IMG/VR virus record: IMGVR_UViG_3300025015_000001
DNA: 64,000 bases
DNA from: a virus
Reading direction: 5' to 3' (one strand)
Shown here piece after piece: positions 10,883-53,882 of this stretch. Position 1 is the first letter of the stretch. Every line of letters begins with the position of its first letter. The notes below the pieces were generated by a model. It had not been told where the DNA came from, searched no databases, and saw only the letters and a program-made list of their open reading frames with translations. Made by a program: the position numbers and the translations under genes.

Positions 10883-11092
10883 CTACAGCTCAGCTTGCCA
10901 GTAATAGCGCCGCTTCGGTTTACCATCCACACCCTCAGGCGGCAGCGGAAACTCCTCATGTTCACCAAGAGCCCAAAGAATCGCCATCCGAAAGCGCGTA
11001 TTCTCTTCTTCCAGTTTCTCAAGAAGGTCGGACAATTCCTCATGTGTTGCTGCCTTCGCGCAAAGTCTTGCCGGTCCCATATCAACCCCCAT
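10883..11092 (-). CDS. cassette ORF, hypothetical
   Basis: 69 aa; starts next to attC 11095. Confidence 0.55.
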   Translation of the reverse strand: MGVDMGPARLCAKAATHEELSDLLEKLEEENTRFRMAILWALGEHEEFPLPPEGVDGKPKRRYYWQAEL

Positions 11093-11094
11093 GT

Positions 11095-11153
11095 ATTTAA
11101 CAACGCCATCAAATCCGACTCGCTACCGCTCGCGGCTTAGCTCCGCGTTAGCT
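11095..11153 (+). other. attC-like site (59 bp)
   Basis: ATTTAAC...CCGAC...CGGCTTAG.CTCCGC.GTTAGCT. Confidence 0.8.
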
Positions 11154-11576
11154 GCTCAGCCAGTTTAATGCTCTATTTTGTCGCCGTTCTTCTTCGTCGC
11201 ACTGCACACAGAGACATTTGCCACACCGAGATGATGCCTCCCTTATCACAACCATATGGGCTTCGGTTTTTCCGCAAGAAAGGCAAGCTAACAAATTGCT
11301 GGAATCAGATTTCGCTTTGCTCAACTGTTCACCTCCACGGTATACTAAAACCCGTTTACAGCATGGACATTTGTCCGTAACGGTCGTGACTCTCCTAACT
11401 CCTGCGCCGATATTGTAGATTGCGAATGGGACACCTTTGCGAGACAGTGCTTCAATGAGCCACTGCATTCCCGCAAGAAATCCAGAGGTTATATCTATTT
11501 CCTGCCCTGTGTCTATTTTCTCTATCATCCGTTTTTTCCAATCAATGCTTATTGTTTTTGCCATACATCCTCCCAA
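11148..11576 (-). CDS. cassette ORF, possibly a fusion of two cassettes
   Basis: stop TAA overlaps R' of attC 11095; degenerate attC in frame at about 11286-11334. Confidence 0.6.
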   Translation of the reverse strand: MGGCMAKTISIDWKKRMIEKIDTGQEIDITSGFLAGMQWLIEALSRKGVPFAIYNIGAGVRRVTTVTDKCPCCKRVLVYRGGEQLSKAKSDSSNLLACLSCGKTEAHMVVIREASSRCGKCLCVQCDEEERRQNRALNWLSS

Positions 11577-11618
11577 CCAATAGCTGAACGGGACAGGCCC
11601 GTTATCTCTGTGTTAAAT
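11571..11618 (+). other. attC-like site (short)
   Basis: TCCCAAC-CAATA-GCTGAAC-GGG..CCC-GTTATC-TCTGT-GTTAAAT. Confidence 0.75.
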
Positions 11619-11752
11619 TGAGACGAGGAATGGAGTCGAACCATCTGAATAGGCCGCCTGATGGTGCAGCCTATTCACTATTCCCTTGTCAATTTTCCAG
11701 TCAGTCATCCCCGACAGGAGGTTTCCCGCAACGCTCGCCTCGCCATAATATT

Positions 11753-11800
11753 TTTTAACCAATCGCTGAACGGGGCAAGCCCGTTAGCTTGCTTTGCTTA
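11753..11800 (+). other. attC-like site, R' degenerate
   Basis: TTTTAAC-CAATC-GCTGAAC...GTTAGC (perfect L pair with extra G); no GTT in R'. Confidence 0.6.
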
Positions 11801-12038
11801 CATCTACCTGGTTGCCCCATTTCCCGCCCATATCCAAGCCGATACTTTCTCCGGCTTCTATTATGGACTTCATGGCGTGATCTGGAAGTTCCAATACCGC
11901 TGTATCTCTCTCATATGAAGTTAAAGGCAACCCTGACATTTCTCGGATACATTTAATAGCATGTCGTAACGCATAGTAGGTTGATTCCAGATTATCAATA
12001 TTAATCTGGATGGTTTTGTTTACTGGATTTATTTTCAA
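11784..12038 (-). CDS. cassette ORF, hypothetical
   Basis: 84 aa with GGAG RBS; lies between two attC-like sites. Confidence 0.7.
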   Translation of the reverse strand: MKINPVNKTIQINIDNLESTYYALRHAIKCIREMSGLPLTSYERDTAVLELPDHAMKSIIEAGESIGLDMGGKWGNQVDVSKAS

Positions 12039-12052
12039 ATTTATCTCCTTTT

Positions 12053-12102
12053 AGCTAACCAGCGGATGGAGCCGACGTTACGGCTCATCCTGGGTGTTAT
12101 GT
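12053..12102 (+). other. attC-like site
   Basis: AGCTAAC-CAGCG-GATGGAG-CCG..CGG-CTCATC-CTGGGT-GTTATGT. Confidence 0.8.
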
Positions 12103-12181
12103 GTGTTTTGTAAGGATGCACATCCCCCTTTAATGCGCCTGTGCAGCTGCATCAGCTTCCACGTCACATCACCTGCCTTTC

Positions 12182-12229
12182 ACATAACCAATAGCTGAAC
12201 GGGACAGGCCCGTTATCTCAGCATTATCA
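12182..12229 (+). other. attC-like site, near copy of 11571
   Basis: 34 bp identical to 11575-11608; R' core reads ATT instead of GTT. Confidence 0.7.
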
Positions 12230-12460
12230 CTTTAAAACTATCGGTGCCCCGTCTTTGTAGAGGCGCGGAGTAATATCTCCGAATAGTCCGGCTTTGACAT
12301 ACTGAATGCCCGTCGCGTGATCGGTATAGACCGACAGGCCGGAACGCTTCCCGAACAGCTTTCCCGGTCTGTAGTCGTCAGTGACGTCATAGGCCCAGCG
12401 AAAATAGTCTCCCGCGAAAGATATGGCAATCAATGCTGCAATGAAAATTAAGAACTTCAT
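12227..12460 (-). CDS. cassette ORF, secreted/membrane-anchored small protein
   Basis: hydrophobic N-terminus MKFLIFIAALIAISFA; TDHATGIQYV motif; GGAGG RBS. Confidence 0.7.
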   Translation of the reverse strand: MKFLIFIAALIAISFAGDYFRWAYDVTDDYRPGKLFGKRSGLSVYTDHATGIQYVKAGLFGDITPRLYKDGAPIVLK

Positions 12461-12728
12461 GTGGTCCTCCATAAAAAAGTGATAACAAGGCTGGTGGTGT
12501 GGGGCACACCTGAACAACCTTTGCGCGAGTCAACATATCACCACCTCTGCATTGCATGGTAGCGGTGCATGGTGCAATCCGGCACTGTAGTCGCACACCC
12601 GGCGGCCAAGAGGGATTGCCCAAAATAGGGCGACCCTCACCTTTACGTTATACAAATAGCTCCTTCTAAATCTTTGTGCTAATTAGTAAATAATCAAATG
12701 CTGATTGTAGCACCATACAAAAGTAGAG

Positions 12729-13493
12729 TCATTTCTTCGCATTAAGTTCCATATCAAATTTTAACTCTACATATTTAGGCTTAAGTTCAGTAAGCAACCC
12801 AGCATCATTTTTAAAATATTTATCTATAGCTTTTCTTACATTCTCCGCACAGTTAAAATTAGTACACTTAACTATATAGTCTTTTATAGCATTTTTAATA
12901 TTTATGATATCAGTATCATTAGTCTTTAGATCAAGCAAAACAATTAATGTCATTTCCGAGAAGGGGCTCCTCTCCTTAGATAGATGACCACATAATATTT
13001 CTTTTTTTCTATTCATAGTATCGTCTGGAACTTTAATATCGAAATGCTTAATACATTGAACAATTTTATCTATATTATAAATATTTCTAGCAAATTTAAA
13101 TTTATCTATTACATACTTATACTCTATTTTATTTTTTATCTTATTAGTCTTCCTATCCAAGACTAAAGGAAAATCAAATATCATAGACCTATATGTGTAC
13201 TCCCAACCTTTATTACTTATAAAAGGGTATTCGCTTCTCCAATGAGACTTTACTATTTTTCTATCTGTTAAATATTTTCTTAATAACATTGCGGCATATG
13301 CCCCATTAAAAGTACCTTTTGGCCACGCCTTTTTGTTAGGATTAATTATAAACTTAGTTTTAGTAATCTTTGCTAGTAAATATTCACAATAATAATACTC
13401 ACCATTCTCTGTTTTATGCCGTCCCGATGCGGCAGTTTGGTGCTTAAAAAATGCAGTCATTACATCACTCATTCTTACTTTTTGCTTTGCCAT
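12729..13493 (-). CDS. hypothetical protein
   Basis: 254-aa ORF in the minus-strand operon. Confidence 0.7.
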   Translation of the reverse strand: MAKQKVRMSDVMTAFFKHQTAASGRHKTENGEYYYCEYLLAKITKTKFIINPNKKAWPKGTFNGAYAAMLLRKYLTDRKIVKSHWRSEYPFISNKGWEYTYRSMIFDFPLVLDRKTNKIKNKIEYKYVIDKFKFARNIYNIDKIVQCIKHFDIKVPDDTMNRKKEILCGHLSKERSPFSEMTLIVLLDLKTNDTDIINIKNAIKDYIVKCTNFNCAENVRKAIDKYFKNDAGLLTELKPKYVELKFDMELNAKK

Positions 13494-13810
13494 TTTACCC
13501 CCAGCTTATTTTTAGCTTCTTCATTCGTTCCTAAGAAAAACTTAGTTTTAGGATTTCTAAAATTATATATTTTATGTCGTAATTTTGTTAACTGGAGGGT
13601 TGTCTCTAAATCTAGGTTCCATTTTGTTGGCAGCTTACTTATGGCATAGTTAAGTATTGCGGACAAGTCTGTTCCATAACACACATGTCTATCGGAACAT
13701 AGTGTAAAGCTATTACCCCCAACGCTCACCAAAGTTAACTTACCAATTTTTATACGCTTTGCTAGATAAGTGACCTCTTCCCACTCTCCTATAGCCTCTA
13801 TACAATTCAT
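13475..13810 (-). CDS. hypothetical protein with shared motif
   Basis: LDLETTLQLTKL. Confidence 0.6.
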   Translation of the reverse strand: MNCIEAIGEWEEVTYLAKRIKIGKLTLVSVGGNSFTLCSDRHVCYGTDLSAILNYAISKLPTKWNLDLETTLQLTKLRHKIYNFRNPKTKFFLGTNEEAKNKLGVKWQSKK

Positions 13811-13819
13811 AGATTACCT

Positions 13820-14521
13820 CTAATTTATAATGACACATCTAATATGAGCAGTTACCTTTTTACTCCAGTCATAGACGTATCTAATGAATGCTTTAGCTAG
13901 TTTTTTATCACCGTTAAATTTAGCAGCCAGGTCATCATGTTTACACCAGTTACCCCCTAAACCAAGAAATGACGCAACTAATATTTTGTTATCACCAGTA
14001 ACAAAACTATCTATATGAATAGATATTTCTTTATAGTTCTTGTTAGTGGCCAACTCTAATGTTCGCGCTAATTTAAATGATGGTTCAGTTTCGCACAGAG
14101 GTAAACAGAGAGTATACATAACTCTGCATGGGATAGGATACGTATTTGGCTGGTAGTCTTTTTCCCTAGTTATCCATACATGCACACCATCAATAATATC
14201 TGGAAACAGATGAAACTCTGTTGGTAATGAATTAATCTTGGCTAGTAATGCTTGTTTAATAGCTTCTTCTTTTTCTGTCTTTATTCTTGCATTTTCCTTG
14301 TACTCTAATACTGCTGGTGATGCCGAGATACTATCGTAGTTCCAATAGTCATTATCTTTAAGTTTAATTATATCCCAATGCTTAAATTTACATATCTTTA
14401 TTAATTTTTCAACATCAGATAATTTTGTGAATCTCAAGTCGCCTCTGTCCATAGTATGATCTATATCTGTAAAATCACAAATCCTATATAAGAACCCATA
14501 TGCACCCTTTGCATCAAACAT
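13820..14521 (-). CDS. hypothetical protein
   Basis: 233-aa ORF with GGAG RBS. Confidence 0.7.
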   Translation of the reverse strand: MFDAKGAYGFLYRICDFTDIDHTMDRGDLRFTKLSDVEKLIKICKFKHWDIIKLKDNDYWNYDSISASPAVLEYKENARIKTEKEEAIKQALLAKINSLPTEFHLFPDIIDGVHVWITREKDYQPNTYPIPCRVMYTLCLPLCETEPSFKLARTLELATNKNYKEISIHIDSFVTGDNKILVASFLGLGGNWCKHDDLAAKFNGDKKLAKAFIRYVYDWSKKVTAHIRCVIIN

Positions 14522-14530
14522 ATTATTCTC

Positions 14531-14764
14531 CTATTTTTCACAATATTCTTTATGTAATTTTTGTAATTGTATTTCTATTTCTAAAGAAATATCCCATCTA
14601 TAACGGTTGTCATATGCAAATTGTATTGCATCTGCTAAAGTACTATAAGTGTTATGTTGTACACCATTAATCATAGGGTGGCCGACTATCATGTTAAATG
14701 CCGAATATGGTGTGCTGAGACTTTCTATAGCTAGTCCAGTAGTCATATCATATAAGTAAATCAT
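14531..14764 (-). CDS. small protein with shared motif
   Basis: YSTLADAIQFAYDN..ISLEIEIQLQKL. Confidence 0.6.
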   Translation of the reverse strand: MIYLYDMTTGLAIESLSTPYSAFNMIVGHPMINGVQHNTYSTLADAIQFAYDNRYRWDISLEIEIQLQKLHKEYCEK

Positions 14765-15687
14765 ATCTGCACCCTTAACTCACTGTCCATACGCTTAGTA
14801 AATAAGATACTTCTAACCACACTATAACTACTCCAAGTATCTTTCTTATTTTTTAATACCATATCTTGGAATGCCATCTTACCTTTAGTATCATTACGCA
14901 GTTCTTCTCCTCTTAAGTTCTGCTGATGGATCTCTGCTCTAAGATTCTTTCTATACTTACGTGGTATATTTAATTTTTCATTTACTACTATACCACATAC
15001 TAATTGTCTCTTAGATCTATGCATTATTTTGGTTTTCTTATGATTAACTTTTAACCCAATCCCAGTAAGTAATTTTTCAGCGTACTTCAAACTGTTAACT
15101 ACATCCTGCTTACTACTACCAGATACAACCAAATCATCTGCATATCTTGTGTAGTCACACTGATAAGTAAAACATTTCCATGCCATTTTCCAATCAATAC
15201 TATACATAATTATATTAGATATAAGAGGAGAAGTGGGGGCTCCTTGTGGTAACCTTTGGTATTTATTATCCTCGAAATCATTAAAACATGTATTCAAAAT
15301 ATTATAATTCTCATTAAATTCTTTTCTAGTCTTTTCGTTTCCTTCGTGGTATAATTTAAAGTTTTTATTTTTACTAAAACTATTGGTTTTGCAAGAAGAC
15401 ACCTCCATAAATATTCTATATTGTATTGACGGAAAGAAGTCCTCAATATCTATGCAACCCACCCATTTCTTCCCTACATGCGGTATTGCCATTGTAACTA
15501 TATTTTTATATGGCTGAAATGCGTGGGCAAATGGTGACACTTTAAATGTCTTTTGTAGTATAGGAATTAAAGCTTGCTGCTTAGCTTTTAGTATTGCATC
15601 TGGGGCTTCTATGATTCTCTCTCCGCCCTTCCTTTTAGGAATTCTGAAAATTGTATAAGACATTTTAGCCCTCCTTACTACTGACAT
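14761..15687 (-). CDS. retron-type reverse transcriptase
   Basis: IPKRKGGERIIEAP, AHAF, NIVTMAIPH (NAxxH-like), IDIEDFFPSI, LPQGAPTSPLISN, YTRYADDL, KVNHKKT, RQLVCGIVVN (VTG-like). Confidence 0.9.
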   Translation of the reverse strand: MSVVRRAKMSYTIFRIPKRKGGERIIEAPDAILKAKQQALIPILQKTFKVSPFAHAFQPYKNIVTMAIPHVGKKWVGCIDIEDFFPSIQYRIFMEVSSCKTNSFSKNKNFKLYHEGNEKTRKEFNENYNILNTCFNDFEDNKYQRLPQGAPTSPLISNIIMYSIDWKMAWKCFTYQCDYTRYADDLVVSGSSKQDVVNSLKYAEKLLTGIGLKVNHKKTKIMHRSKRQLVCGIVVNEKLNIPRKYRKNLRAEIHQQNLRGEELRNDTKGKMAFQDMVLKNKKDTWSSYSVVRSILFTKRMDSELRVQI

Positions 15688-15895
15688 CTATTATGTTAAT
15701 TGCATCCCGAGCTATACGTAACAATTTCAATTCATGTTCTCTACTATATATTTTATCTAGTATAACTCTTTTACATTGTCTAATATTGTCTTCATCCATC
15801 CAATCCACATCAGCGCACTTATTTCTTTTAAGATGCCAGCTATGTTTCCACTCATCTATATCTATTGCATGGAGTACATCATCATGTATTTTCAT
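15665..15895 (-). CDS. hypothetical protein overlapping RT start (candidate retron partner)
   Basis: 76 aa with GGAGG RBS; lies between candidate ncRNA and RT. Confidence 0.6.
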   Translation of the reverse strand: MKIHDDVLHAIDIDEWKHSWHLKRNKCADVDWMDEDNIRQCKRVILDKIYSREHELKLLRIARDAINIIDVSSKEG

Positions 15896-15914
15896 TTTTA
15901 GCCTCCTTTTTTTA

Positions 15915-16024
15915 ATATACTATGCTTACCTAATGTGGTAGATGTTAACTACTAATTTTACTAATACTTATCGAATCAATAAGTAGTGCTATAATTAAAG
16001 CACACGTACCATAGCATTTTATAT
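15915..16024 (-). ncRNA. candidate retron msr-msd
   Basis: terminal inverted repeats ATATAAAATGCT / AGCATAGTATAT (10 of 12 pair) enclosing hairpins GTGCT/AGCAC, TACTTAT/ATAAGTA, TACC/GGTA. Confidence 0.4.
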
Positions 16025-16313
16025 CTGTCCTGCGCCGAGAACGACTCCGATCGTGTTGTTATCTTTTAATTTATTTTCGAGTAGATGAAACATCTACCTC
16101 CAGCACCTTTATAACCATTCTATACTTTTATAGAATTGGCAAGGTTTATTGCATAGACGAGCAAAATACTTGTTAATTGAGCCAAAGAAATCCAGGCGTG
16201 TCGCCTGGATAAATTGTAGTAAATTTTTACATAATATAGCGAACCACTATAGTTGTCACTCAGACAGAGACGCTCAATAATTATTTAATTTGGTATCCCT
16301 TTTCCCAGCTAAT

Positions 16314-16439
16314 TTAGTCTGGGTTTAGAACTTCTAAGTCAAATCCTAGTCTTATTAGTATCTGTTCTAGATACCATTGCTTATGGTGTCCATCATCTGT
16401 GCACAGACCAGCTATTACAATGCCCTTAATAGTCTCCAT
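16314..16439 (-). CDS. 41-aa conserved phage peptide
   Basis: METIKGIVIAGLCTDDGHHKQWYLEQIL; GGAGG RBS; below the ORF-track cutoff. Confidence 0.6.
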   Translation of the reverse strand: METIKGIVIAGLCTDDGHHKQWYLEQILIRLGFDLEVLNPD

Positions 16440-17067
16440 ATTTTCCCTCCATTTATTTTCTAGTTATGCCTATTGACTAATTTTAATGATTCGTAAGCGA
16501 AGCTTTTTGCGGTAGTATCGCAAAACATTAAAATTGTATGTGTTTTCACAAAACTTTTTTGTGTAAAGATAGCGCAGCACTATCCAATTTGAGACGCATA
16601 ACTTACTATTATTTTATTGCACCCACTTTTGATCCTAAGCTTTTAACGAAACGTAGTGTAGTTAAAAGAAGCGGATCAAACAATTAGTAGTATTAAAAGT
16701 ACTTCTCTAATCAGACGAAGCATCTGACCTGTCAATTTTATTGACCATAGACGTGCAATAATATTTCTTACGAAATAAGCAATACAATTAATTAATTTAT
16801 AATTTCTAAAACATCATGACTAAAGAATTTGATCTAATTATTATTATAAGTATCTGAATGTGACAAATTGGAAGTTGTAATTTTTCACAAGAAGATCTTA
16901 TAATAATAATTAGGTTAATATGTTTGTAGTAATTAAATCTTTGCACTTGTTGGCGAAGCACCAACTGCAATTGTTATTGCGAGACTCATGACAGTTTAAT
17001 TTCTGAACTTATTTAAATCAACCCTCGTACCTCTTATATATAAATCGTTATCACAATGATTTGGCAT

Positions 17068-17262
17068 TTAGTTCTCCTGTCTACGTTGTAGCATGTCTTC
17101 TGCTTTATTTATAATTTTAGTATAATATAAATCTTTCTCTAACGATGGTGCGCGCTCCCTGATAAGTATATTTCTGATATGATATAATTGGTTTCTTAGA
17201 TAGATATGCTCTTTCAGAATTACTTCATACTTGTTTAATAGACCATCAATCCTGTTTATCAT
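17068..17262 (-). CDS. hypothetical protein
   Basis: 64-aa ORF co-oriented with neighbours. Confidence 0.45.
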   Translation of the reverse strand: MINRIDGLLNKYEVILKEHIYLRNQLYHIRNILIRERAPSLEKDLYYTKIINKAEDMLQRRQEN

Positions 17263-18913: not shown

Positions 18914-18925
18914 GATTGTTCTCCT

Positions 18926-19635: not shown

Positions 19636-19650
19636 GCCTACCCTCCCACT

Positions 19651-23284: not shown

Positions 23285-23343
23285 TATTTTCTCCCTTTAC
23301 GTAGTAAATTCTCTAGGCTGTGCCTAGCTTTGCTTCTCCTGAG

Positions 23344-23409
23344 TTCCAACATTTGCGTCAACGCGGACGCTTCGCCTTCGGCTCCGCGCCGGTTACGCCA
23401 GCGTTAGAG
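23344..23409 (+). other. attC-like site
   Basis: TTCCAAC-ATTTG-CGTCAAC...GTTACG-CCAGC-GTTAGAG. Confidence 0.85.
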
Positions 23410-23413: not shown

Positions 23414-23605
23414 TCATGAAACTGTCTGGGTACTTTCCATTTTCAAAGGTCGCGCGCCCTTTGTCGTGGCTCGATTCTTTCCGCTTCTGGCTGCTGCAAG
23501 CCCGCCAGAACATGAGCTTACCGACTCAGCTTGCAACTTCCGGTATAGCGCGGCCAACCTACTTTCGTCAAACAGCTTCATGATGCCCTCTAACCTGTCG
23601 TTCAA
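23414..23605 (-). CDS. cassette ORF, hypothetical
   Basis: between attC 23344 and 23588; real start may be MKLFDES. Confidence 0.45.
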   Translation of the reverse strand: MNDRLEGIMKLFDESRLAALYRKLQAESVSSCSGGLAAARSGKNRATTKGARPLKMESTQTVS

Positions 23606-23650
23606 CCCGGACTCCGCAAAAGCGCGGAGCCGGTTAACTTTACGTTATGC
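23588..23650 (+). other. attC-like site
   Basis: CTCTAAC-CTGTC-GTTCAAC-CCGG-A-CTCC..GGAG-CCG-GTTAAC-TTTAC-GTTATGC. Confidence 0.9.
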
Positions 23651-23899
23651 ATCATCTAGCTTGTTCGCCCAATCCAGAAGTTCCTTCTTGCTCTTAAAGA
23701 CATTGTGCCGTTTCATGATGATTGAAATCTTGGCAAACGTGAAAAGCAAAAACAACAACCCGGTAACGAATGTCCAAAATGTGCTGCCTTGGCTTATGTA
23801 GATGCAAAACGCCAGCAAAGAGAACGTCACAAAATCTTTGTAAAAAGACTCCAGAACGCTTTCTCTTTTGTCGATCACTACAATCTTTTCTTCGCTCAT
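23645..23899 (-). CDS. cassette ORF, two-TM membrane protein
   Basis: GGAGG RBS; stop TAA overlaps R' of attC 23588. Confidence 0.75.
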   Translation of the reverse strand: MSEEKIVVIDKRESVLESFYKDFVTFSLLAFCIYISQGSTFWTFVTGLLFLLFTFAKISIIMKRHNVFKSKKELLDWANKLDDA

Positions 23900-23915: not shown

Positions 23916-23977
23916 GCATAACAAGTCATTCCAGCCGATCCTCGCTACGCTCGGACGGCTGAATTCCGGCGTTATCC
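23916..23977 (+). other. attC-like site
   Basis: GCATAAC-AAGTC-ATTCCAG-CCG-A...CGG-CTGAAT-TCCGGC-GTTATCC. Confidence 0.92.
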
Positions 23978-24148
23978 CAAATCGTCGTAACAGTTTTTAC
24001 AGTGCATGTCTGGTTCAAGTCCCATGTTGTACCAAACTACACCATACGGGTGTCCTCTTGCTCTGCACCAAAACGCAGTCCATCGGCTTATTCCGTCGGC
24101 TGGTTTTCCGAGAAGAAATTTCCACCAATCCAAAGTGAGCCAGTGCAT
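23972..24148 (-). CDS. cassette ORF, 58 aa
   Basis: manually translated MHWLTLDWWKFLLGK...MHCKNCYDDLG; stop overlaps R'. Confidence 0.65.
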   Translation of the reverse strand: MHWLTLDWWKFLLGKPADGISRWTAFWCRARGHPYGVVWYNMGLEPDMHCKNCYDDLG

Positions 24149-24149: not shown

Positions 24150-24196
24150 TTCTAACCTCCCGTTCGACCCCATACGGGGTCAACTAATTGTTGTGC
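24150..24196 (+). other. attC-like site (short)
   Basis: TTCTAAC-CTCCC-GTTCGAC-CCC-ATAC-GGG-GTCAAC-TAATT-GTTGTGC. Confidence 0.8.
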
Positions 24197-24197: not shown

Positions 24198-24368
24198 TCA
24201 CTCGTCGCTGAACGGTGATCCGCCGCCAAATACGATTGCGACAGAGCATCCGTCCGGCTCTACTCGCAGGATGTTGTCCCACCCGCAGTGTTCGTCTCTG
24301 CAAACAACAACCGCATCATCGTCATATCCATCTAGTGCTCTAAGTAATTCTCCCTTTGTCATGCTCAT
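24198..24368 (-). CDS. cassette ORF, 56 aa acidic
   Basis: manually translated MSMTKGELLRALDGYDDDAVVVC...GGGSPFSDE; AGGAG RBS. Confidence 0.65.
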   Translation of the reverse strand: MSMTKGELLRALDGYDDDAVVVCRDEHCGWDNILRVEPDGCSVAIVFGGGSPFSDE

Positions 24369-24415
24369 CTCCTTTCTTCGTTGGTGCCGGCGATCCGGTG
24401 ACTTTTACGTTATGC

Positions 24416-24631
24416 CTACAACTCAAGTAGGCGCTCTGGTATGCCAACAACATAATCAAATCCAAGTTCAACACAAAAATGAGAATCGTCCCCAGATAAA
24501 TGACTATAATCATCAGTAATCACGCCGACCATCTCATCAATATCGTGATCTATGTAATCATCCCAATGATCTCGACTTTTAAGCCACCTTGTTGCCCCGT
24601 GCTTAACTTTAACTTTGTCTCCGATAGTCAT
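24416..24631 (-). CDS. cassette ORF, SH3/KOW-like
   Basis: MTIGDKVKV...VGVIT; GGAG RBS. Confidence 0.65.
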   Translation of the reverse strand: MTIGDKVKVKHGATRWLKSRDHWDDYIDHDIDEMVGVITDDYSHLSGDDSHFCVELGFDYVVGIPERLLEL

Positions 24632-24644: not shown

Positions 24645-24700
24645 GCATAACAAGTCAGTCCAGCGGGCGAAAAGACCCGCCGCTGACTTCATCGTTAGCA
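24645..24700 (+). other. attC-like site
   Basis: GCATAAC-AAGTC-AGTCCAG...CTGACT-TCATC-GTTAGCA. Confidence 0.88.
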
Positions 24701-25042: not shown

Positions 25043-25106
25043 TGCTAACCCTGCGCTCCAGCGCGACGGCGGAAAAGCACCGCCGCGCCTGAGCTATGCG
25101 TTGGGC
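25043..25106 (+). other. attC-like site
   Basis: TGCTAAC-CCTGC-GCTCCAG...CTGAGC-TATGC-GTTGGGC. Confidence 0.9.
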
Positions 25107-25279
25107 GTCAATATCTCCACGCCGATTAAATCGGTTCGGTCGAACCCAGACTCACCGAATCCACCTGCTGATAATTTCTCCTCAATGACTGGAATATCCA
25201 TGTCAACGGTTTCAAAACTTTCGCTCCTAGAGCCGCTAATATTGTCCTGCCATGTACGCTTAAAAATTAGTCTGACCAT
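25094..25279 (-). CDS. cassette ORF, homolog of 53570-53800
   Basis: DMDIP..E..L and IGVEILTPNA; reads through the attC core. Confidence 0.7.
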   Translation of the reverse strand: MVRLIFKRTWQDNISGSRSESFETVDMDIPVIEEKLSAGGFGESGFDRTDLIGVEILTPNA

Positions 25280-25357
25280 ATCATCTCCCTATGTCTAACC
25301 ACTCGTAGTTCTCTAGGCTATGCCTAGAGCTTTATTTTTATTTTAGAATTTCTAAAA

Positions 25358-38527: not shown

Positions 38528-38601
38528 TGGCTTACCCGCCTCGACTCGAACGAGGATATCTGACTTCAAAGGACAGCGACTTGCCATTAGTCCACGGGTA
38601 A
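38528..38601 (-). tRNA. tRNA-Gln (UUG)
   Basis: acceptor TTACCCG/CGGGTAA, anticodon loop CT-TTG-AA, T-loop GTTCGAGTC, encoded CCA. Confidence 0.9.
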
Positions 38602-42670: not shown

Positions 42671-42794
42671 TAAGTAGGACTATCTTACATAGTCATATTG
42701 TAATATAGTGCTATATATAAGTAGGACTATCTTACATAGTCATATTGTAATATAGTGCTATATATAAGTAGGACTATCTTACATAGTCATATTG
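42671..42794. repeat. 47-bp tandem repeat, about 2.6 copies
   Basis: TAAGTAGGACTATCTTACATAGTCATATTGTAATATAGTGCTATATA at 42671, 42718 and partial 42765. Confidence 0.95.
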
Positions 42795-43093
42795 GAAGAT
42801 AATCCTAGAAAGGGGGGTATTCGAGCTGGCTGACGGTGGAGCATTTTATTTATATCCATTTCTTATAATTTTCATTTTATCATTGTGACATATTACAACT
42901 TATATAATATCTATTAATACTCATCTCATATTTGCATCATATAAAACCCACCATAACTTCTAAAATTATATGCCTATTACTTAAAATTATTAACAATGTA
43001 GTGCTTATTGATTACTCAATACCCTCAATTCTTATACCAAATTTGACTTCCTTATTATCTCATTAATTTCTTTTAAAGTTTGTATTGCTTACT

Positions 43094-44468: not shown

Positions 44469-44485
44469 AATGCAACCTCTATATT

Positions 44486-45091: not shown

Positions 45092-45164
45092 ACGTACCTT
45101 TCTAATTTTTATTATATATACTATAGCATATCTGTAATGCTAATGCAATATAATATTTTTAGTA

Positions 45165-45813: not shown

Positions 45814-45816
45814 TTT

Positions 45817-46944: not shown

Positions 46945-46945
46945 A

Positions 46946-47200: not shown

Positions 47201-47207
47201 TTAGACT

Positions 47208-47660
47208 ATGCAACAGAAAATAAAAACAATAAAAGACTTTCAAAACATTATTGATAACAAAGCTAATTGGGTATTCTGCCAATATTTTAATGGGCTTGAA
47301 TGGATGCGTCTATGCAGCTCCGCTCGACCTTCTGTAGAGTTTGTAGAGGAATTTATACACAAAATAATTTTTTATTCTATTTCTAAAAATAAATTATTAG
47401 CCAAACCCATCATAGATAAATATTCAGATAAACTAGATTGGCGTCTTATATCACATAATCATGTATTAAATTCTTATTTTGTAAATACTTATTTAGATAG
47501 ATTAAATTTAGAGGTAGTGTTAGATAGAGTGCATAGAATTACTGCTATGAATTTGAAAGAAGATACACTATGTTGCATTAATGAGCATACACTTAAAGTA
47601 GTAAAGTTTACCTTAGAGTTAGACTGGTATTTAAAAGGGGAAAGAAGTGACTACTATTAA
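47208..47660 (+). CDS. hypothetical protein with short LDW-type repeats
   Basis: LEWMRL, LDWRLIS..L repeats. Confidence 0.6.
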   Translation: MQQKIKTIKDFQNIIDNKANWVFCQYFNGLEWMRLCSSARPSVEFVEEFIHKIIFYSISKNKLLAKPIIDKYSDKLDWRLISHNHVLNSYFVNTYLDRLNLEVVLDRVHRITAMNLKEDTLCCINEHTLKVVKFTLELDWYLKGERSDYY

Positions 47661-47862
47661 TATAAATGATATAGTAAGAGTGAGGTTAACAGAAAAAGGT
47701 AAACATATATATAAATATCATATAGGATTATATAACAGTCTAGATAGAATTAAAGATGGGCTGTTGGAAACTGAATTGTGGGATATTGCCGTTATATTTG
47801 GTGGTGAGTTTTATATGGGCGCAGAGCCTATGTTTGAAAATAATGAAATTATTTTAGTTTAG
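47647..47862 (+). CDS. conserved small phage protein
   Basis: ININDIVRVRLTEKG; LWDI..IFG. Confidence 0.65.
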   Translation: MTTININDIVRVRLTEKGKHIYKYHIGLYNSLDRIKDGLLETELWDIAVIFGGEFYMGAEPMFENNEIILV

Positions 47863-48316
47863 TGGCTTTGCTGATTTAAAATGACGTATTCTCTTTCATG
47901 CCCTACGCTAAGCATCCTACCAACAGAATGGTAGTCTTTTACTTCTTGCTCTCTACTCGCACCATTCATAACCCCATTTCAAATCTTCATTTTTCCTCAA
48001 TAACATTCTCAGGCATTCTGCTGACTATTTTGTTTATATACTGATATTATTTCGTCTGTTCTTTTCATTAATAATGATAACATTTCATCATAATGCTCTA
48101 GATTTTCAAAATCATCTTCTTTTATTTTAAGCATCTATCTACTGCTCCTCCACTACTACCACTGGAATGTCTTCCCAATTAATACCTATGATATCGTTAC
48201 CTTTATCATCTACACCCTTCCATTCAAAAGCTCCTTGTAGAACTGTAGTGTCTTTCTTTTTTAGTAATCGGTATGAGGATGGAGTTAACCTCTTCATTTT
48301 TATATTTTCCATGTTA

Positions 48317-49108
48317 TTAATCCCATAAACATTCAAAATGATCTATAACCTTCATTAATATCTTTTTTCTTTCTTTGCACTTTTTAGTGTGTTCTACTAT
48401 TACTTTTTTTCTGTCTCTATCAGTTTTACAATTAGCAAAATTTATGTCAGTATTTTCATCCGCGTAGTCTAAGAACGCATCCCCTACTCTGTGTAGTTCG
48501 GCCTGCCACTCTTCAAAAGTTTCAAACTTACTATCAGGCCAACCATGCGTAGTATCGGCTAATTGTTTTAGCCCATTACCGATTATATCAGCTAAGAAAT
48601 AATCGTATGACCAGATATCTCTGTCACTATAACCACGACGACCTCTTTGTACAAAGTATTTAATTTCTCTAGGAAAATCTTTTATTTTATGATAAATCCC
48701 CAAAAATTTTCTACGAAGATATACATAGATATTTCTTGGGAATTTACTATCTTTTATTCTCTGTTTTTCCCATCTTTCTATTATTTCATCCATTGAAAAT
48801 GTTCTAAATGGTTCTGCTGAGACTGCAGTTGTGCCCGTTAGCGTAAATTTAACTGTATCGTCTATAGGAGGAAAAATTGACCGACTCTTAGTCAGACCAT
48901 CGTACATAAAATTCAAATCTGGAAACTTAAGCTTAGATGTATTTACAGCATGATCTCTTAGTATAACAGAGTAATCTTTTTTACTTTTTTCCCTACTAAG
49001 TTTCTTTAAGTTTTCTGCTGGAGTTTCCTCATTAGATTTTATTTTTTTAATAAAATCTTTAGCATCCATATCGGTTAGTATTGGTGTTTCTGCTATTTTC
49101 CTAGCCAT
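48317..49108 (-). CDS. conserved phage protein
   Basis: QRGRRGYSDRDIW..D..L..II..GL..L..THGWP. Confidence 0.7.
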   Translation of the reverse strand: MARKIAETPILTDMDAKDFIKKIKSNEETPAENLKKLSREKSKKDYSVILRDHAVNTSKLKFPDLNFMYDGLTKSRSIFPPIDDTVKFTLTGTTAVSAEPFRTFSMDEIIERWEKQRIKDSKFPRNIYVYLRRKFLGIYHKIKDFPREIKYFVQRGRRGYSDRDIWSYDYFLADIIGNGLKQLADTTHGWPDSKFETFEEWQAELHRVGDAFLDYADENTDINFANCKTDRDRKKVIVEHTKKCKERKKILMKVIDHFECLWD

Positions 49109-49146
49109 TTATTTATCTCCATTTATTGTTTAGCCTCTGTAGACTA

Positions 49147-49539
49147 CTACTTTTGCCATAGCATATCTATGGTGTTAATAACTTTTTTTAAATCTATTAT
49201 AGCCTCTTTTGGTATGTTATATAATATAGATTTATCAGTATAACACACACTATCATATTTATCTTTTACCATTAAAGCGGGAGCACCGCACATATTACTA
49301 AAAGATATTCGTATATTATTATAGTTTTTATAAGGTATTCCTGTTTTAGATAATGTATAATTTTTAGATACTAGGTACTCTACTATCTTGTATTCCTCTA
49401 CTAAGCCTTCATCATTACATATCCTCTCTATCTCCTCTCTACCTCTAATACATTCTTTGCAGAGAAATGCTTTTTCTCTTGCAAATTTTGGCGGTTCTTC
49501 TTTGGTTTCGCATTTTGTGCAGGTATATAGTTTTGTCAT
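49147..49539 (-). CDS. hypothetical zinc-finger protein
   Basis: CTKC...CKEC. Confidence 0.6.
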   Translation of the reverse strand: MTKLYTCTKCETKEEPPKFAREKAFLCKECIRGREEIERICNDEGLVEEYKIVEYLVSKNYTLSKTGIPYKNYNNIRISFSNMCGAPALMVKDKYDSVCYTDKSILYNIPKEAIIDLKKVINTIDMLWQK

Positions 49540-49913
49540 TTTATGTAATTCCTTAATTATCTGATTAGTGGATTAACATCGTTTTAATAGTCTCTGTGGC
49601 TAGCCATGATGTACAAACCATTCTCGTGCTTTCTGATTCATTTTCATCTCATCCCAAAACCGTGACTACTCTGCTGGGTTCCTACTGCTGAAGAGGAGAT
49701 ATTTCTTCAAATTGCTGTGTAGCACTAATAGGTGCTTTACAGCCGCAAAAGGGACAAAATTAACTGGGTTTCCTAAGTATCCTTCTTTTCCCTGTACCCA
49801 AAATGTCCCGTTAGATTCTTCAGTACAACTATCAAGTTGCTGTTGATAGTTGTTTACTTCGTAAAATTTAGTATAATCACAACTATGCCTTGTCATACAA
49901 AAATGTAACCTCC

Positions 49914-49973
49914 TTATAACAGGCGGATGCAATAGATTCCACTTTGCTACACTATTGATCCTTGGCGTTGGGC
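49914..49973 (+). other. attC-like site
   Basis: TTATAAC-AGGCG-GATGCAA...TTGATC-CTTGGC-GTTGGGC. Confidence 0.82.
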
Positions 49974-49974
49974 G

Positions 49975-50229
49975 TTAGTAGTCATAGAAGCCTTCGATCT
50001 CTTTCCCGTCCGCATAAATGCCACCTTCGTGTGGCTGTAAACTACTCACAGTTTCCTCACCATCTGCGCTTAACTCATGCCGGTAAATGTCATCGCTGTT
50101 ACCACCATAACCGCATGTCAGCCGCTTTCCATCTGGAAGGTCTGCCTCATAAGTGAAAGTGTATTTGTAGTAGCTCGAAAACTTTACTTTCACGCTCCCA
50201 TATTTATGGTAAAATTCTTGCCTTGTCAT
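49975..50229 (-). CDS. cassette ORF, conserved phage protein
   Basis: YGSVKVKFSSYYKYTFTY; 84 aa. Confidence 0.75.
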   Translation of the reverse strand: MTRQEFYHKYGSVKVKFSSYYKYTFTYEADLPDGKRLTCGYGGNSDDIYRHELSADGEETVSSLQPHEGGIYADGKEIEGFYDY

Positions 50230-50254
50230 AACTCACCTCTTCGATTAAAGTTCA

Positions 50255-50317
50255 GCCCAATCCATCGTTCAACCCGGACTCCGCAAAAGCGCGGAGCCGG
50301 TTAACTCTACGTTATAT
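50255..50317 (+). other. attC-like site, 42 bp identical to attC 23588
   Basis: GCCCAAT-CCATC-GTTCAAC...GTTAAC-TCTAC-GTTATAT. Confidence 0.85.
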
Positions 50318-50319
50318 TT

Positions 50320-50888
50320 TTAAACCTGCGCTAAAAGCAGACCCCATTGGTCTGCCATTCCAGCGGCTATCCCTTGGAATGTTTTACTGCGTTCTTTCCA
50401 CCTATCAGGACTTGGCGGCATCCTGTGAATCCGACTTTCTCTCCCGTCCACGATATTCGTCGGTTTTAATGGCGGCAAACCTTTCAGCCAAAGACACGTT
50501 GCCTTTGTCTCCCCGTGCCCGAATTGCCACGGCTGTATCAATTGGTCAGGCTTCCGCCACAGTGATGACATAATACATACTGGGTTTTCTATTGCAATCT
50601 TTGGAATATCAGCCGTTGCCAGCATCATAAAAAAGCTGATTGCACTTTGCTGCCGTCCATCCAGTTTCTTGGCGGTAAAATGTTTTGCCCCCGATACAGA
50701 TAAATGGGTACATGGCGGGTGCGCTATCATTATATCCCAACATCCATGTATTACGTCTCTGATATCCCCTGATAATGCGCGCCAGGGGAATCAGTCGGCA
50801 AAATATCACAGGACATTGCGTCATGCCCCCTTTCAATAAACGCATCCCGAACTATTCCGCTGAATTCACACGCGACTAAAACTCTCAA
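50320..50888 (-). CDS. C5-DNA-methyltransferase-like phage protein (1-nt frameshift at about 50765)
   Basis: RVLVACEFSG, SCDILP, then AHPPCTHL, IENPV, QPWQFGH, RSKTF in next frame. Confidence 0.75.
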
Positions 50889-51026
50889 TCGTAATCTCCT
50901 GGCGGTGGCCCGTCTCCCGATGTCCCCCCGCCAAGGGCTGCAATACATATAAGCAAAAAAATAATCCCAAATATCATCAGTTCCAATTCTAACCCCCTAT
51001 GGCTTCCAGCCAGCGCAGATTTAAAA

Positions 51027-51086
51027 ATATAACCAGTCGCTCAAGAGGGATGCGATAAGGCCGCACCCCTTAGCTTGGCGTTAGGT
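51027..51086 (+). other. attC-like site
   Basis: ATATAAC-CAGTC-GCTCAAG...CTTAGC-TTGGC-GTTAGGT. Confidence 0.92.
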
Positions 51087-51242
51087 GCGAACCCACACCA
51101 CTTCAGTTCCTAGCCAAAAAATACTGGTACATTTGCCCCAAACAACAATCTTTGGAAAAATCCGGTACTTTGGGTATCCACCCGCAAATAACAATTTGCC
51201 TCCAATTAAAGTTTTTCCGCGAGTCCACTTGTTAATGTTCAT
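51081..51242 (-). CDS. cassette ORF, 53 aa
   Basis: manually translated MNINKWTRGKTLIGG...EVVWVRT; stop overlaps R'. Confidence 0.6.
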   Translation of the reverse strand: MNINKWTRGKTLIGGKLLFAGGYPKYRIFPKIVVWGKCTSIFWLGTEVVWVRT

Positions 51243-51250
51243 GCAATCGC

Positions 51251-51335
51251 ACCTAACTGTGTGTTCGAGGCGGACGCGGAATTACGCCGCGCCTAGTTTT
51301 ACTTCTTGGCCGCGCCGCTCAACACGGCGTTCTCC
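51251..51335 (+). other. attC-like site (85 bp)
   Basis: ACCTAAC-TGTGT-GTTCGAG-GCGG-A-CGCGG...CCGCG-CCG-CTCAAC-ACGGC-GTTCTCC. Confidence 0.85.
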
Positions 51336-51598
51336 CGGTGCTTCGCGCCGTGAGAATGCGGAGCTAAGCCGAACCCGCCACCCATCAGCTCGTCATGCGC
51401 CCCGTGAAACTTGGCTACGCATTCTGGCAGTCGTTGCAGCCATCCATCAACATCATCCAGTGGCACATCTCCGAATAGACGACATACCCCCTCAGTTCCA
51501 AACCTGCGGGCGAACACAAACGGACACATCGAGCCGGGGTAAGACGGCGGTTCGCTGCATGTCGTTTCGCCTGTGTGAAAAATCAAAACCTGCTTCAT
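51299..51598 (-). CDS. cassette ORF, Cys-containing hypothetical
   Basis: GGAGG RBS; reads into the attC (ENAVLSGAAKK). Confidence 0.65.
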   Translation of the reverse strand: MKQVLIFHTGETTCSEPPSYPGSMCPFVFARRFGTEGVCRLFGDVPLDDVDGWLQRLPECVAKFHGAHDELMGGGFGLAPHSHGAKHRENAVLSGAAKK

Positions 51599-51622
51599 TG
51601 TTTCCTCCGTAGTTGTTGCAGA

Positions 51623-51678
51623 TCCTAACCGTCAATCAACGCGGACGGCTTCCATCTGCCGTTATTTCGGCGTTAATA
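51623..51678 (+). other. attC-like site
   Basis: TCCTAAC-CGTC-AATCAAC...GTTATT-TCGGC-GTTAATA. Confidence 0.8.
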
Positions 51679-51680
51679 TC

Positions 51681-51860
51681 CTACTTTTGTTTTTTTGGAT
51701 AAGCAATATTTAGCGTCCATGATATTGTAGTATTCTTTCCACAATGCCTACATGCCCATTCAACTGAATACCCTTGAGGGACATCAAACTGGAAATTAAG
51801 AGGGGTAATATTTCTTTTTTCACAATGAATACATTTCCAATTAAACTTTGTTTTATCCAT
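51681..51860 (-). CDS. cassette ORF, 59-aa zinc ribbon
   Basis: manually translated MDKTKFNWKCIHC...WACRHCGK. Confidence 0.65.
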   Translation of the reverse strand: MDKTKFNWKCIHCEKRNITPLNFQFDVPQGYSVEWACRHCGKNTTISWTLNIAYPKKQK

Positions 51861-51876
51861 ATACGTATCTCATCTC

Positions 51877-51925
51877 ACCCAACCAGCCGTTCAAGCCGAT
51901 GAACGACTTAACTCATTCGTTATAT
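51877..51925 (+). other. attC-like site (short)
   Basis: ACCCAAC-CAGCC-GTTCAAG...CTTAAC-TCATTC-GTTATAT. Confidence 0.82.
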
Positions 51926-52330
51926 TTTGAAAATCACTATTGCACTCGGAAAAGGCGCACTGTTGGCTTGCCCTCCGAATTTCAGCCGTCCTCTAATAAA
52001 TCTTATTTCACCCTTTACCGCGTAATCGTGCCACCATGCCGTGTCCGTTCTCGCCGGAACAAGACAAACCACCGTTGCACCGGCGCGTGAGCTTTCGTAT
52101 GCCTTACGCATCCAGCGGGCTATTTCCCGGCCATACGGCTGGTTCATCCAGCAGATCCCGCGCCACTCTTGCTTTAAGCCGTCTTGTTCCGGCGAGAAGA
52201 AGCGCGGACACTTTGCGTTTTCCGGTATCGCGCATACGTCAAGAGCAAAACCAAATTCCTCGTGCAATTTGTCGAACGTGGCCTGTGGTGTGCTCCATAA
52301 ATCTGTCTCTGACGAAAAATGTACGTTCAT
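51920..52330 (-). CDS. phage DNA N6-adenine methyltransferase (cassette)
   Basis: WSTPQ, FALDVCA, CWMNQPYG (NPPY-like), LVPARTDTAWWH, IRGRLKF; stop overlaps R'. Confidence 0.9.
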   Translation of the reverse strand: MNVHFSSETDLWSTPQATFDKLHEEFGFALDVCAIPENAKCPRFFSPEQDGLKQEWRGICWMNQPYGREIARWMRKAYESSRAGATVVCLVPARTDTAWWHDYAVKGEIRFIRGRLKFGGQANSAPFPSAIVIFKI

Positions 52331-52342
52331 AAAAACCTCAAA

Positions 52343-52401
52343 ATATAACCAGTCATTCGAGCCGACTCCGCTTCGCTGCGCGGCTCAATTCTTTGTTATG
52401 T
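52343..52401 (+). other. attC-like site (59 bp, very canonical)
   Basis: ATATAAC-CAGTC-ATTCGAG-CCG-A-CTCCGCTTCGCTGCG-CGG-CTCAAT-TCTTT-GTTATGT. Confidence 0.95.
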
Positions 52402-52980
52402 GCTCTTTTTGTCCGTTGTTTCATACTCCGCTGCGGATTCCTTGTAGTAGGCATCCATCTGCTTCATTGTCACTTTCTTCCAGTCTTGGAACGTCCGAGG
52501 GTTCCGGTAGTCGCTGAACTGGAAGCGGTTACGGACATCCAATGTCACGGAACCGTCATCGTGAAAAACGGGCTGGCATCCCAGGACAATGTAAGCGTCA
52601 TTCTTGCGGCAGACCTTGTGCCAGCGGTCGTTAAACTCGAACTGCTTGTCATCCCATTTCCACTGTGGGCGATTTGCTACCCGTTCGCGGTCATAGAAGT
52701 TGAGCCCGACATTTTCCCACCAGCAAAGTTCCCCATCCTCGATACTTTCCAGCAGGTACTTCGGCCATCCATTGTTCTGGTCATATTCCCGGAACCAAGA
52801 CAGATACCACTTTGACGGCGGTGCAGAGGTCAGCGAAACGAGGTCGCCGACTTGTGGCTTATCGTTACCAAAATCCGACCGCCAATCCTTATTGTTGATC
52901 GTCGGAAACGACATCAACTCACTCAGTATCATCAATCTCGCTCTATTTTTTGCCACGTAATCCCCCTTGAATCCGCACAT
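52396..52980 (-). CDS. cassette ORF, Trp-rich hypothetical
   Basis: 194 aa filling the space between two attC sites; stop overlaps R'. Confidence 0.8.
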   Translation of the reverse strand: MCGFKGDYVAKNRARLMILSELMSFPTINNKDWRSDFGNDKPQVGDLVSLTSAPPSKWYLSWFREYDQNNGWPKYLLESIEDGELCWWENVGLNFYDRERVANRPQWKWDDKQFEFNDRWHKVCRKNDAYIVLGCQPVFHDDGSVTLDVRNRFQFSDYRNPRTFQDWKKVTMKQMDAYYKESAAEYETTDKKST

Positions 52981-53037
52981 AACAAGCCGCAGCAGACAGA
53001 CTGCGCTCCGCTTGCTGCTGTGCTAAATACGTTAGGA
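52977..53037 (+). other. attC-like site
   Basis: ACATAAC-AAGCC-GCAGCAG...CTGTGC-TAAATAC-GTTAGGA. Confidence 0.8.
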
Positions 53038-53283
53038 TTTCACTTTGAGAATATCGGCCATTTCTTCGTCGGATAATTTATCATGCACTTTAATATGCTC
53101 CGCTCCGTGGACGATGAGCTGTTCGAGGTCGTAGGTGATAAAACCAAAAGACACCCACCCAAGACAAACGCGGTACAAGAATCCTGCCGCAATTTCGATC
53201 CTGAAACCGCCGTATGTTTTCCCGATACAAAAATATCCGCTGAATCCGCGTGGTATATTCAAAGCTCCTCCAATCCTAACCAT
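53032..53283 (-). CDS. cassette ORF, hypothetical
   Basis: stop overlaps R' of attC 52977. Confidence 0.65.
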   Translation of the reverse strand: MVRIGGALNIPRGFSGYFCIGKTYGGFRIEIAAGFLYRVCLGWVSFGFITYDLEQLIVHGAEHIKVHDKLSDEEMADILKVKS

Positions 53284-53331
53284 AAAATCGACGGCGACGC
53301 GCTTCGCTTGCGCGTCATTTTGGTGTTAATC
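53274..53331 (+). other. attC-like site
   Basis: TCCTAAC-CATAA-AATCGAC...GTCATT-TTGGT-GTTAATC. Confidence 0.82.
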
Positions 53332-53590
53332 TATGCAATGCTTTTCTAACTCTCTGATCTGTGATAATAAGTCTGTCACTATCATTTTCTCAGTAGCAAG
53401 CTCTTCTTTGAGATGCTTATTCTCATTTTCGAGATATCGTAACTTGCAAAAAGGACAAATACCATCATGCAATACAGTCTTATCACAATCACAAGTCTCA
53501 AGACTAACGCCAGCATCCAGCGGACTCACTATCTCCCGGCCTGTGCTTTTCTCGTATGTCTTGCCGTCTTTAAACTCTATATTGTCCATA
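53326..53590 (-). CDS. cassette ORF starting inside an attC-like palindrome
   Basis: AGGAG RBS + MDNIEFKDG; CDC..CPFC; coiled-coil end; stop overlaps R'. Confidence 0.65.
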
Positions 53591-53619
53591 TATCTCCTGC
53601 CGCTGGATGCTGGCGTTAG
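53504..53619. other. symmetric attC-like site with 20-bp perfect arms
   Basis: CTAACGCCAGCATCCAGCGG ... CCGCTGGATGCTGGCGTTAG, 76-nt loop. Confidence 0.7.
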
Positions 53620-53800
53620 GCTCCAACAACTCAACCCCGACCACGTTGGCATGTGAATATGCCCCGTAGGCATCGCGCAGGTACTTTTCTACTTCTGGAA
53701 TATCCAGATCAAATGTTTTGTGCTTTGTTTCCACGCTAACGCTACCACCAACATTTGCAGCCATACTTGCATCATCTACTCGAACTATTATGCGAATCAT
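53570..53800 (-). CDS. cassette ORF, homolog of 25094-25279
   Basis: DLDIPEVEKYL and VVGVELLEPNA. Confidence 0.7.
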   Translation of the reverse strand: MIRIIVRVDDASMAANVGGSVSVETKHKTFDLDIPEVEKYLRDAYGAYSHANVVGVELLEPNASIQRQEIYGQYRV

Positions 53801-53823
53801 TGCATCCTCTCCATTTCTTTTGC

Positions 53824-53882
53824 GCCTAACTGGCGCTTCAACCGGACGCCCGAACTGCCTTGTTATAATCTAGGCGTTACAT
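53824..53882 (+). other. attC-like site, right border of array 3
   Basis: GCCTAAC-TGGCG-CTTCAAC...GTTAT..AGGC-GTTACAT; AT-rich backbone resumes immediately. Confidence 0.75.

Follow-up and report, generated by a model that had tools for sequence, protein, structure and literature searches.

Integrons are taught as bacterial devices in which a strand rule places the captured genes in sense orientation. The stretch considered here, 64,000 nucleotides (hereafter the window) of the complete, 194,269-bp virus record IMGVR_UViG_3300025015_000001, which has direct terminal repeats, carries three islands (A, B and C) of integron-type attC recombination sites beside which the genes called all run in the opposite direction. 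Canonical integrons, whether class 1 or sedentary chromosomal (PMC5027507, PMC5371416), share with these islands the attC anatomy, the extra base in L'', the crossover at G↓TT (the arrow marking the crossover), a mobile unit that includes the R''-side attC, and complementary segment ends, while related phages retain the IntI, attI and attC geometry as well. They differ in that here the open reading frame (ORF) is reversed in every cassette, with the site heading its gene and the stop codon in R', and in that their expression starts from Pc at attI, whereas here it must come from the far end of the array. attC clusters that lack an integron-integrase (CALINs) have been published for the virulent phages TJE1, PH101 and P12002L (Qi et al. 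2023, PMC9892861); these are likewise clustered attC sites without IntI, carry DNA methyltransferase cargo and belong to a type whose bottom strand IntI1 recombines. However, the three sites and the genes of TJE1, the one case checked, lie on the same strand in the canonical manner, whereas here 24 sites in three arrays are all antisense to a phage-type cargo, and a search by terms of the same paper found no report of antisense cargo. IntI also inserts cassettes at secondary GWT sites outside integrons in the attG reaction (10.1101/2022.09.11.507474), and the single attC sites lacking integron-integrases (SALINs) described there resemble island A, which lies at a GWT-type secondary site inside a gene, but here an array of several cassettes has been inserted, its target belongs to a phage and the cassettes are antisense. 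A literature search yielded no paper on antisense phage cassettes or inverted polarity, although paywalled or unpublished work may exist. The term 'anti-integron' has reportedly been used in meeting abstracts for phage-borne integron-like elements, which the search did not confirm.

We consider it probable that the three islands are CALINs made of genuine cassettes that belong to a pool specific to phages and carry their ORF back to front, and that an IntI acted in trans at least for island A. A covariance model trained on 52 bacterial attC sites whose head-side gene has the normal orientation scored 21 sites in the window (15.5-59.6 bits), all inside the islands, and gave no match in the remaining 130 kb of the genome. 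This agrees with an earlier reading of the window made from its letters (the sequence-only reading), which had counted about 21 attC-type sites in three GC-rich islands and proposed such a scan of both strands. All 21 lie on the plus strand and only the palindromic site at 53506 scores on the minus strand too, so that the uniform polarity claimed earlier stands for the sites in general but not for 53506, which as a palindrome has no polarity. With three degenerate sites (11757, 12596 and 24372) the islands hold six (A), seven (B) and 11 (C). They follow the attC plan, in which the AAC of R'' and a 5-nt spacer lead to an L'' that has one base too many, and the stem-loop leads to L', a spacer of 5-6 nt and the GTT of R'. 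Eleven are intact, with 6/6 pairing of L'' and L' round an extra fourth base, which is C in 14/20 and G in 6/20 sites. The plus strand is the attC top strand because the extra base, by a published rule, sits in L'' of that strand (PMC5027507) and because site C7 resembles the aadA7 top strand. All genes called next to the sites (by a codon model, which replaced a longest-ORF test of polarity that was too noisy) are on the minus strand, as had been claimed for every inter-site ORF, except that the cassette at 12098-12225 has no ORF. Ten stops fall within R': the nine ORF ends noticed earlier, in each of which the TAA lies on the TTA of the R' GTTA, and likewise that of a tenth, short ORF at 11613. 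A canonical cassette has its ORF on the attC top strand, ending at R''; here all called ORFs are on the bottom strand. Each of the clusters of 6, 7 and 11 sites has at least two attC on one strand within 4 kb and no intI, as in CALINs. The system is real and is a variant of the integron system, one that fits the definitions of attC site, cassette and CALIN and fails those of complete integron and canonical cassette.

The gene segments have complementary ends, the tail of the left R' matching the head of the right R'' (85 matches vs 48 ± 5 after shuffling, p<1e-5), which argues for cassettes but does not tell which attC accompanies the gene. Segments shared between phages do: two unrelated phages (L122 and L145) have 651 bp in common at 94.5%, from one GTT to the next with the R''-side attC included, 10 alignments of shared segments stop ≤12 bases past the GTT of the R''-side site, and 12/18 tail-side alignments exclude the downstream site. 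Since the shared units thus run from G↓TT to G↓TT (from the TT of R' to the G of their own attC) with the R''-side site, what moves and where it is cut are as expected for an ordinary IntI, and the ORF alone is reversed. The crossover positions lend indirect support to the notion that the sites may be recombined by IntI as a folded bottom strand. The same alignments argue against a mirror-image system, in which a recombinase preferring the other strand would move each gene with its downstream site, the layout being normal and the side of the bulge switched. Such a system would be in keeping with stop codons that, as normal cassettes also have them, sit in the core downstream of each gene, and with the 4/18 tail-side alignments that take in most of the downstream site, but we regard it as very improbable, all the more as the phage integrons described below vary right after the attI G↓TT, have canonical IntI, attI and attC geometry, and encode enzymes that are ordinary TIGR02249 members.

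The reversed orientation is widespread among phages. One polarity-defining pattern was used to survey viral contigs and bacterial genomes, 120 loci each, which, as with all locus samples here, were among the matches listed and chosen by pattern or by similarity. The cargo was antisense in 100/120 viral loci and sense in 12, compared with 17/120 antisense and 85 sense in the bacterial ones, and stops lay in R' vs R'' in 48 vs 10 cases in viruses and 6 vs 58 in bacteria. Five of the bacterial antisense loci have genes in common with the viral pool, which suggests that they are prophage DNA. Three loci of the survey already carried a phage-encoded IntI, and a scan for such enzymes gave at least 80 loci; in 49/53 of those with enough upstream DNA, attC lies upstream of intI on the opposite strand, with antisense cargo at 134 sites vs 1, and four of four phage IntI proteins tested passed the TIGR02249 integron-integrase model. 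About 35 of the loci (among L275-L354) have upstream of intI a conserved attI, with the consensus GGTGTCG-NN-GAATTYAAG↓TT, which in most cases lies 50-115 bp from where the intI match starts; the sequence after its G↓TT is variable and matches the head of the first attC (135 vs 89 ± 6). These IntI loci are complete phage integrons, whose transcription unit has intI and attI at its downstream end. They resemble the inverted integron-integrase group (Treponema and others; Cury 2016, 10.1101/030866) in that intI has the direction of the cassette genes, but that group flips intI, whereas phage integrons flip the cargo and keep intI opposite to the attC top strand as usual; neither they nor the present genome, which has no intI, belong to it. 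The JGI sample that gave one contig of the phage studied here also contained an IntI phage (L284).

The viral pool appears distinct in its proteins, for a comparison of 433 viral antisense with 216 bacterial sense cassette proteins gave no cross match at E 1e-6, while 161 of the 433 have viral homologues. The attC sequences are in part common to both pools, a canonical Methylobacillus integron having a site that is almost the same as the core of sites B2 and C2. In a quick IntI tree, one branch (support 96) unites 10/10 host-type rows with four phage rows, and 50 phage rows fall elsewhere; the root is a midpoint and the sample was chosen by similarity to one phage IntI, so that sampling and root are weak and no single origin is claimed. 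Nine GenBank phage records have an IntI match at E<1e-40, and those that could be placed are class 1 or host-type; GenBank phages match the window via the methylase and other coding sequence, never via the arrays. In one record, KX853513 (Virus Rctr41k), an IntI-like gene annotated xerD (4680-5678) is in line with its neighbours, and no attC was scored within 5 kb of it. Captured host integron DNA might seem suggested by the GC content of the islands (47-50% vs 32% in the backbone) and by some attC cores nearly identical to those of chromosomal integrons (e.g. L193), but host cassettes are sense and the cargo here consists of phage families matching no bacterial sense cassette sampled. This explanation, like that of a chimeric assembly, is largely refuted, and we accord the two hardly any weight. 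Independent ENA, JGI and Logan assemblies of the phage come from several samples (three labelled groundwater metagenome); nine independent contigs agree with the window at 99.96-100%, and because the longer ones cross both borders of island C, the islands are not an assembly chimera, at least for C, which goes far to dispose of a possibility that the sequence-only reading had itself raised.

How an array entered this phage is indicated by island A. The useful relatives came from metagenome and protein look-ups (for the thymidylate synthase flank, the relatives among viral contigs proved too remote and lacked arrays), and six relative loci of ~65-90% nucleotide identity have neither islands nor any attC. 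Joining the G at 10874 directly with the TT at 12648 gives the resident gene back its C-terminus, in frame with its homologue in one of the relatives (L457). The right flank of the island is in register at 16/29 bases (p=0.002), compared with 3-12 for the flanks of the other 23 sites, and there is a single GWT with the target sequence continuing on both sides, as in attG insertions. Judged from these alignments, island A was inserted precisely into a backbone gene at one GTT, and the restoration of that gene by removal at G↓TT points to an IntI supplied in trans. The empty loci in relatives that the earlier reading had called for were thus found, and reordering was found between other phages. 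Its claim of a phage-specific antisense pool moved by an IntI-type enzyme holds for the pool and for an enzyme in trans, but not for its suggestion that the enzyme might be encoded elsewhere in the genome: the absence of an integrase from the window extends to all 194 kb, in which neither a PF00589 search for tyrosine recombinases nor tblastn for IntI or an IntI fragment gave a match. The best match in the genome to the phage attI profile, which covers the phage attI type only, scores 8.7 vs ≥18 for true sites, so that with no adjacent intI and no match to this profile the genome has no complete integron. A retron-type reverse transcriptase (RVT_1, PF00078), encoded at 14761-15687 on the minus strand, 2 kb from island A, could be imagined to have made the cassettes locally, but two relatives (L454 and L457) have the same enzyme without island or attC, islands B and C are far from it and the cargo is foreign in GC; we give this origin practically no credence.

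Several observations weigh against the interpretation of the islands as IntI-moved cassette arrays. Some 13/24 sites are eroded, so that the earlier description of L''/L' pairing with an extra fourth base in most sites is sound for the 11 intact ones, with their C or G, while about half have decayed, and under DNA energy parameters the minus strand folds better in only 13/23 sites. Island B lies between two copies of a phage palindrome and island C within the remains of an eroded 86-aa resident gene, the junctions being clean in neither, and over the parts covered nine contigs reveal no loss or reordering of cassettes in island C. One of the cargo methylases (phrog_757) is frameshifted, this genome has no intI and no attI of the profiled type, and the locus samples were selected as described. 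The arrays look like acquisitions that are now partly decaying, and the cassette shuffling that had been proposed is upheld between other phages (L122 and L145; L050, L098 and L105, in which an 86-aa cassette is flanked by three different neighbours) but not in this genome, where the arrays are partly decayed and identical in nine contigs. A sterner explanation is that the islands are dead relics, blocks copied from IntI-encoding phages by homologous or illegitimate recombination, on which an integrase never acted here. It can draw on the direct repeat of the phage palindrome that brackets island B, on the truncated attC in which that island ends, on the left junction of C, which is not recoverable, on the many decayed sites and the invariance of the array across contigs, and on one phage locus (L028) with a homologous gene between two half-sites. 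We nevertheless find it unlikely as an account of all three islands, for 11 sites are intact and an island at a single G↓TT, with the resident gene continuing on both sides, is unexpected from block exchange. With B and C, which lack clean junctions, the islands may have been transferred as blocks by other recombination, and the relic explanation might well be right for these two yet wrong for A.

Returning to cassettes that are mobile and reversed, each would start at the TT of one R', continue through a gene in reverse and finish with its own R''-side attC, and an IntI of the ordinary kind, which cuts at G↓TT in the folded bottom strand, could both excise and insert it. Because the bottom strand is the coding strand of the phage, inserted cassettes would point along phage transcription, and because insertion obeys the bottom-strand rule, the layout of the cassette would fix the direction of its gene. 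The cassette genes, aligned with phage transcription, would use their own ribosome-binding sites (RBS), and an array read from a phage promoter at its far end would express reversed cassettes alone; we infer that selection for expression from phage promoters drives the orientation. Our preferred reason is that reversal would keep phage cargo expressed while captured host cassettes, which are often anti-phage, would be antisense and silent; host integrons are known to store anti-phage genes (10.1101/2024.07.02.601686). Reversal might bring a second gain by placing the recombining strand on the lagging-strand template, a position that raises excision (PMC5371416); the GC skew of the phage changes sign where the gene strand changes, so that this position is inseparable from coding bias. 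The pool would be maintained mainly by smaller phages with IntI and attI at the downstream end of their arrays, and this 194-kb phage would have received at least island A at a secondary GTT in a backbone gene, by an IntI provided in trans by a prophage, a co-infecting phage or the host. As many other phages encode IntI beside inverted arrays, the supplier is no less likely to have been a prophage or a co-infecting phage than the host chromosome.

The coordinates of the features are collected in Table 1. The named cargo comprises a Dam-family methyltransferase, the frameshifted phrog_757 methyltransferase and a phrog_1229 protein, the other genes being mostly small and unnamed. Many predicted antisense cassette proteins of other loci (L326, L040, L076, L342, L103 and others) appear, from their predicted starts, to open with a peptide encoded by the bottom strand of their own attC. 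By eye, an apparent right half of an attC of opposite polarity, resembling that of A1 and unscored by the model, is seen at ~51345-51365 inside the ORF at 51299-51598. Elsewhere in the window, a palindromic TTTAGAA-TTCTAAA motif, probably an operator or promoter element, lies between genes of the leftward region (5180-42284; 26/28 copies) and is retained in relatives. A second palindrome, CTAGGC-N3-GCCTAG, usually found beside it, has four copies (21279, 23313, 25313 and 29617), of which the two bracketing island B are exactly 2000 bp apart. A TnpB/IS605 OrfB gene (3921-5126, plus strand) opposes the direction of its neighbours, a RecA gene with an intein and a LAGLIDADG domain (56386-58701, minus strand) adjoins SbcC/SbcD-like genes, and a 47-bp unit is repeated three times in tandem in a gene-poor stretch (42671-42811). 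An Rfam scan gave nothing but two tRNAs, for Gln and Thr (38531-38601 and 63571-63639, minus strand).

Table 1. Sites, junctions and cassette genes of the three islands (window positions; scores are those of the attC covariance model).
Feature	Position	Strand	Remarks
Island A, six attC with cassettes	10875..12647		precise insertion, judged from sequence, at one G↓TT in resident gene 3' end
Left junction of island A (attG-type G↓TT, phage backbone)	10874..10876	+	L457 homology starts here; island removal restores reading frame
attC A1	11099..11149	+	L''/L' mismatched, hybrid or eroded; 16.8 bits
attC A2	11575..11614	+	short type as in A3, A5; 19.9 bits; repeat family D17
attC A3	11757..11796	+	degenerate, GTT lost; unscored
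attC A4	12057..12098	+	intact; 31.5 bits
attC A5	12186..12225	+	GTT changed; short type as in A2, A3; 15.5 bits
attC A6	12596..12649	+	AAC changed; island A has its right junction at the G↓TT of this site
attC B1	23348..23405	+	intact; 32.2 bits
attC B2	23592..23646	+	intact; 53.4 bits; core common to C2 and 12 viral contigs, nearly to Methylobacillus chromosomal integron
attC B3	23920..23973	+	intact; 59.6 bits
attC B4	24154..24192	+	short, intact; 17.7 bits
attC B5	24372..24411	+	right half alone, left limit approximate; unscored
attC B6	24649..24696	+	intact; 47.3 bits
attC B7	25047..25102	+	intact; 36.7 bits
Probable truncated attC (R'' and spacer) fused to phage palindrome, right end of island B	25297..25306	+	from sequence and junction alignment
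Phage palindromic element, left copy at island B	23313..23327		
Phage palindromic element, right copy at island B	25313..25327		
attC C1	49918..49969	+	stem eroded; 22.6 bits
attC C2	50259..50313	+	AAC changed to AAT; 40.9 bits
attC C3	51031..51082	+	intact; 51.9 bits
attC C4	51255..51331	+	intact; 30.5 bits
attC C5	51627..51674	+	16.4 bits
attC C6	51881..51921	+	intact; 34.9 bits
attC C7	52347..52397	+	intact; 46.9 bits; near aadA7 top strand (sequence: PMC9892861 Table S3)
attC C8	52981..53033	+	21.7 bits
attC C9	53278..53327	+	18.7 bits
Site C10	53506..53617		arms perfectly palindromic, extra base absent; 24.5 bits (+), 18.9 bits (-); loop holds RBS and start of 87-aa gene
attC C11	53828..53878	+	eroded; rightmost site of island C; 21.7 bits
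Cassette gene, phage Dam-family adenine methyltransferase	51920..52330	-	PF05869 E 1e-30; phrog_111
Cassette gene, phrog_757 DNA methyltransferase, frameshifted pseudogene	50320..50888	-	
Cassette gene, phrog_1229 phage protein	24695..25024	-	82% identity to copy in phage locus L028
Cassette gene, function not assigned	52396..52932	-	homology to unrelated phage L030 starts exactly at G of left GTT
Cassette genes of island A	10883-11092, 11148-11564, 11784-12038, 12227-12460; doubtful 11613-11762	-	
Other cassette genes of island B	23414-23581, 23645-23899, 23972-24148, 24198-24368, 24416-24631, 25094-25279	-	
Other cassette genes of island C	49666-49896, 49975-50229, 51081-51242, 51299-51598, 51681-51860, 53032-53262, 53326-53589, 53570-53800	-	

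A wider view, to which we give not quite an even chance, is that of a parallel phage integron economy, with largely separate IntI lineages, its own attI and antisense cassettes, which is tapped by large phages without an integrase and set apart by a polarity firewall. If the firewall is true, neither would host cassettes be expressed inside phage arrays nor phage cassettes inside host integrons, even though one set of enzymes could move both kinds; if the parallel pool is true, it would hold many DNA methylases and small early genes, to which large phages would gain access via secondary-site insertion. The antisense pool is plentiful in viral metagenomes, on the sampled loci given above, and nearly absent from cultured phage records, and the present genome adds a clean empty-site comparison that points to IntI acting in trans on an IntI-less phage. 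The strand rule of integrons would here serve a phage-wide pool in the opposite orientation, offering a mechanism, defined and site-specific, by which some of the mosaicism of phage genomes and the spread of anti-restriction methylases could arise, and a phage-side counterpart to the anti-phage genes stored in host integrons. Mirror-image pools with the same attC types would also provide a comparative handle on how cassettes are first made.

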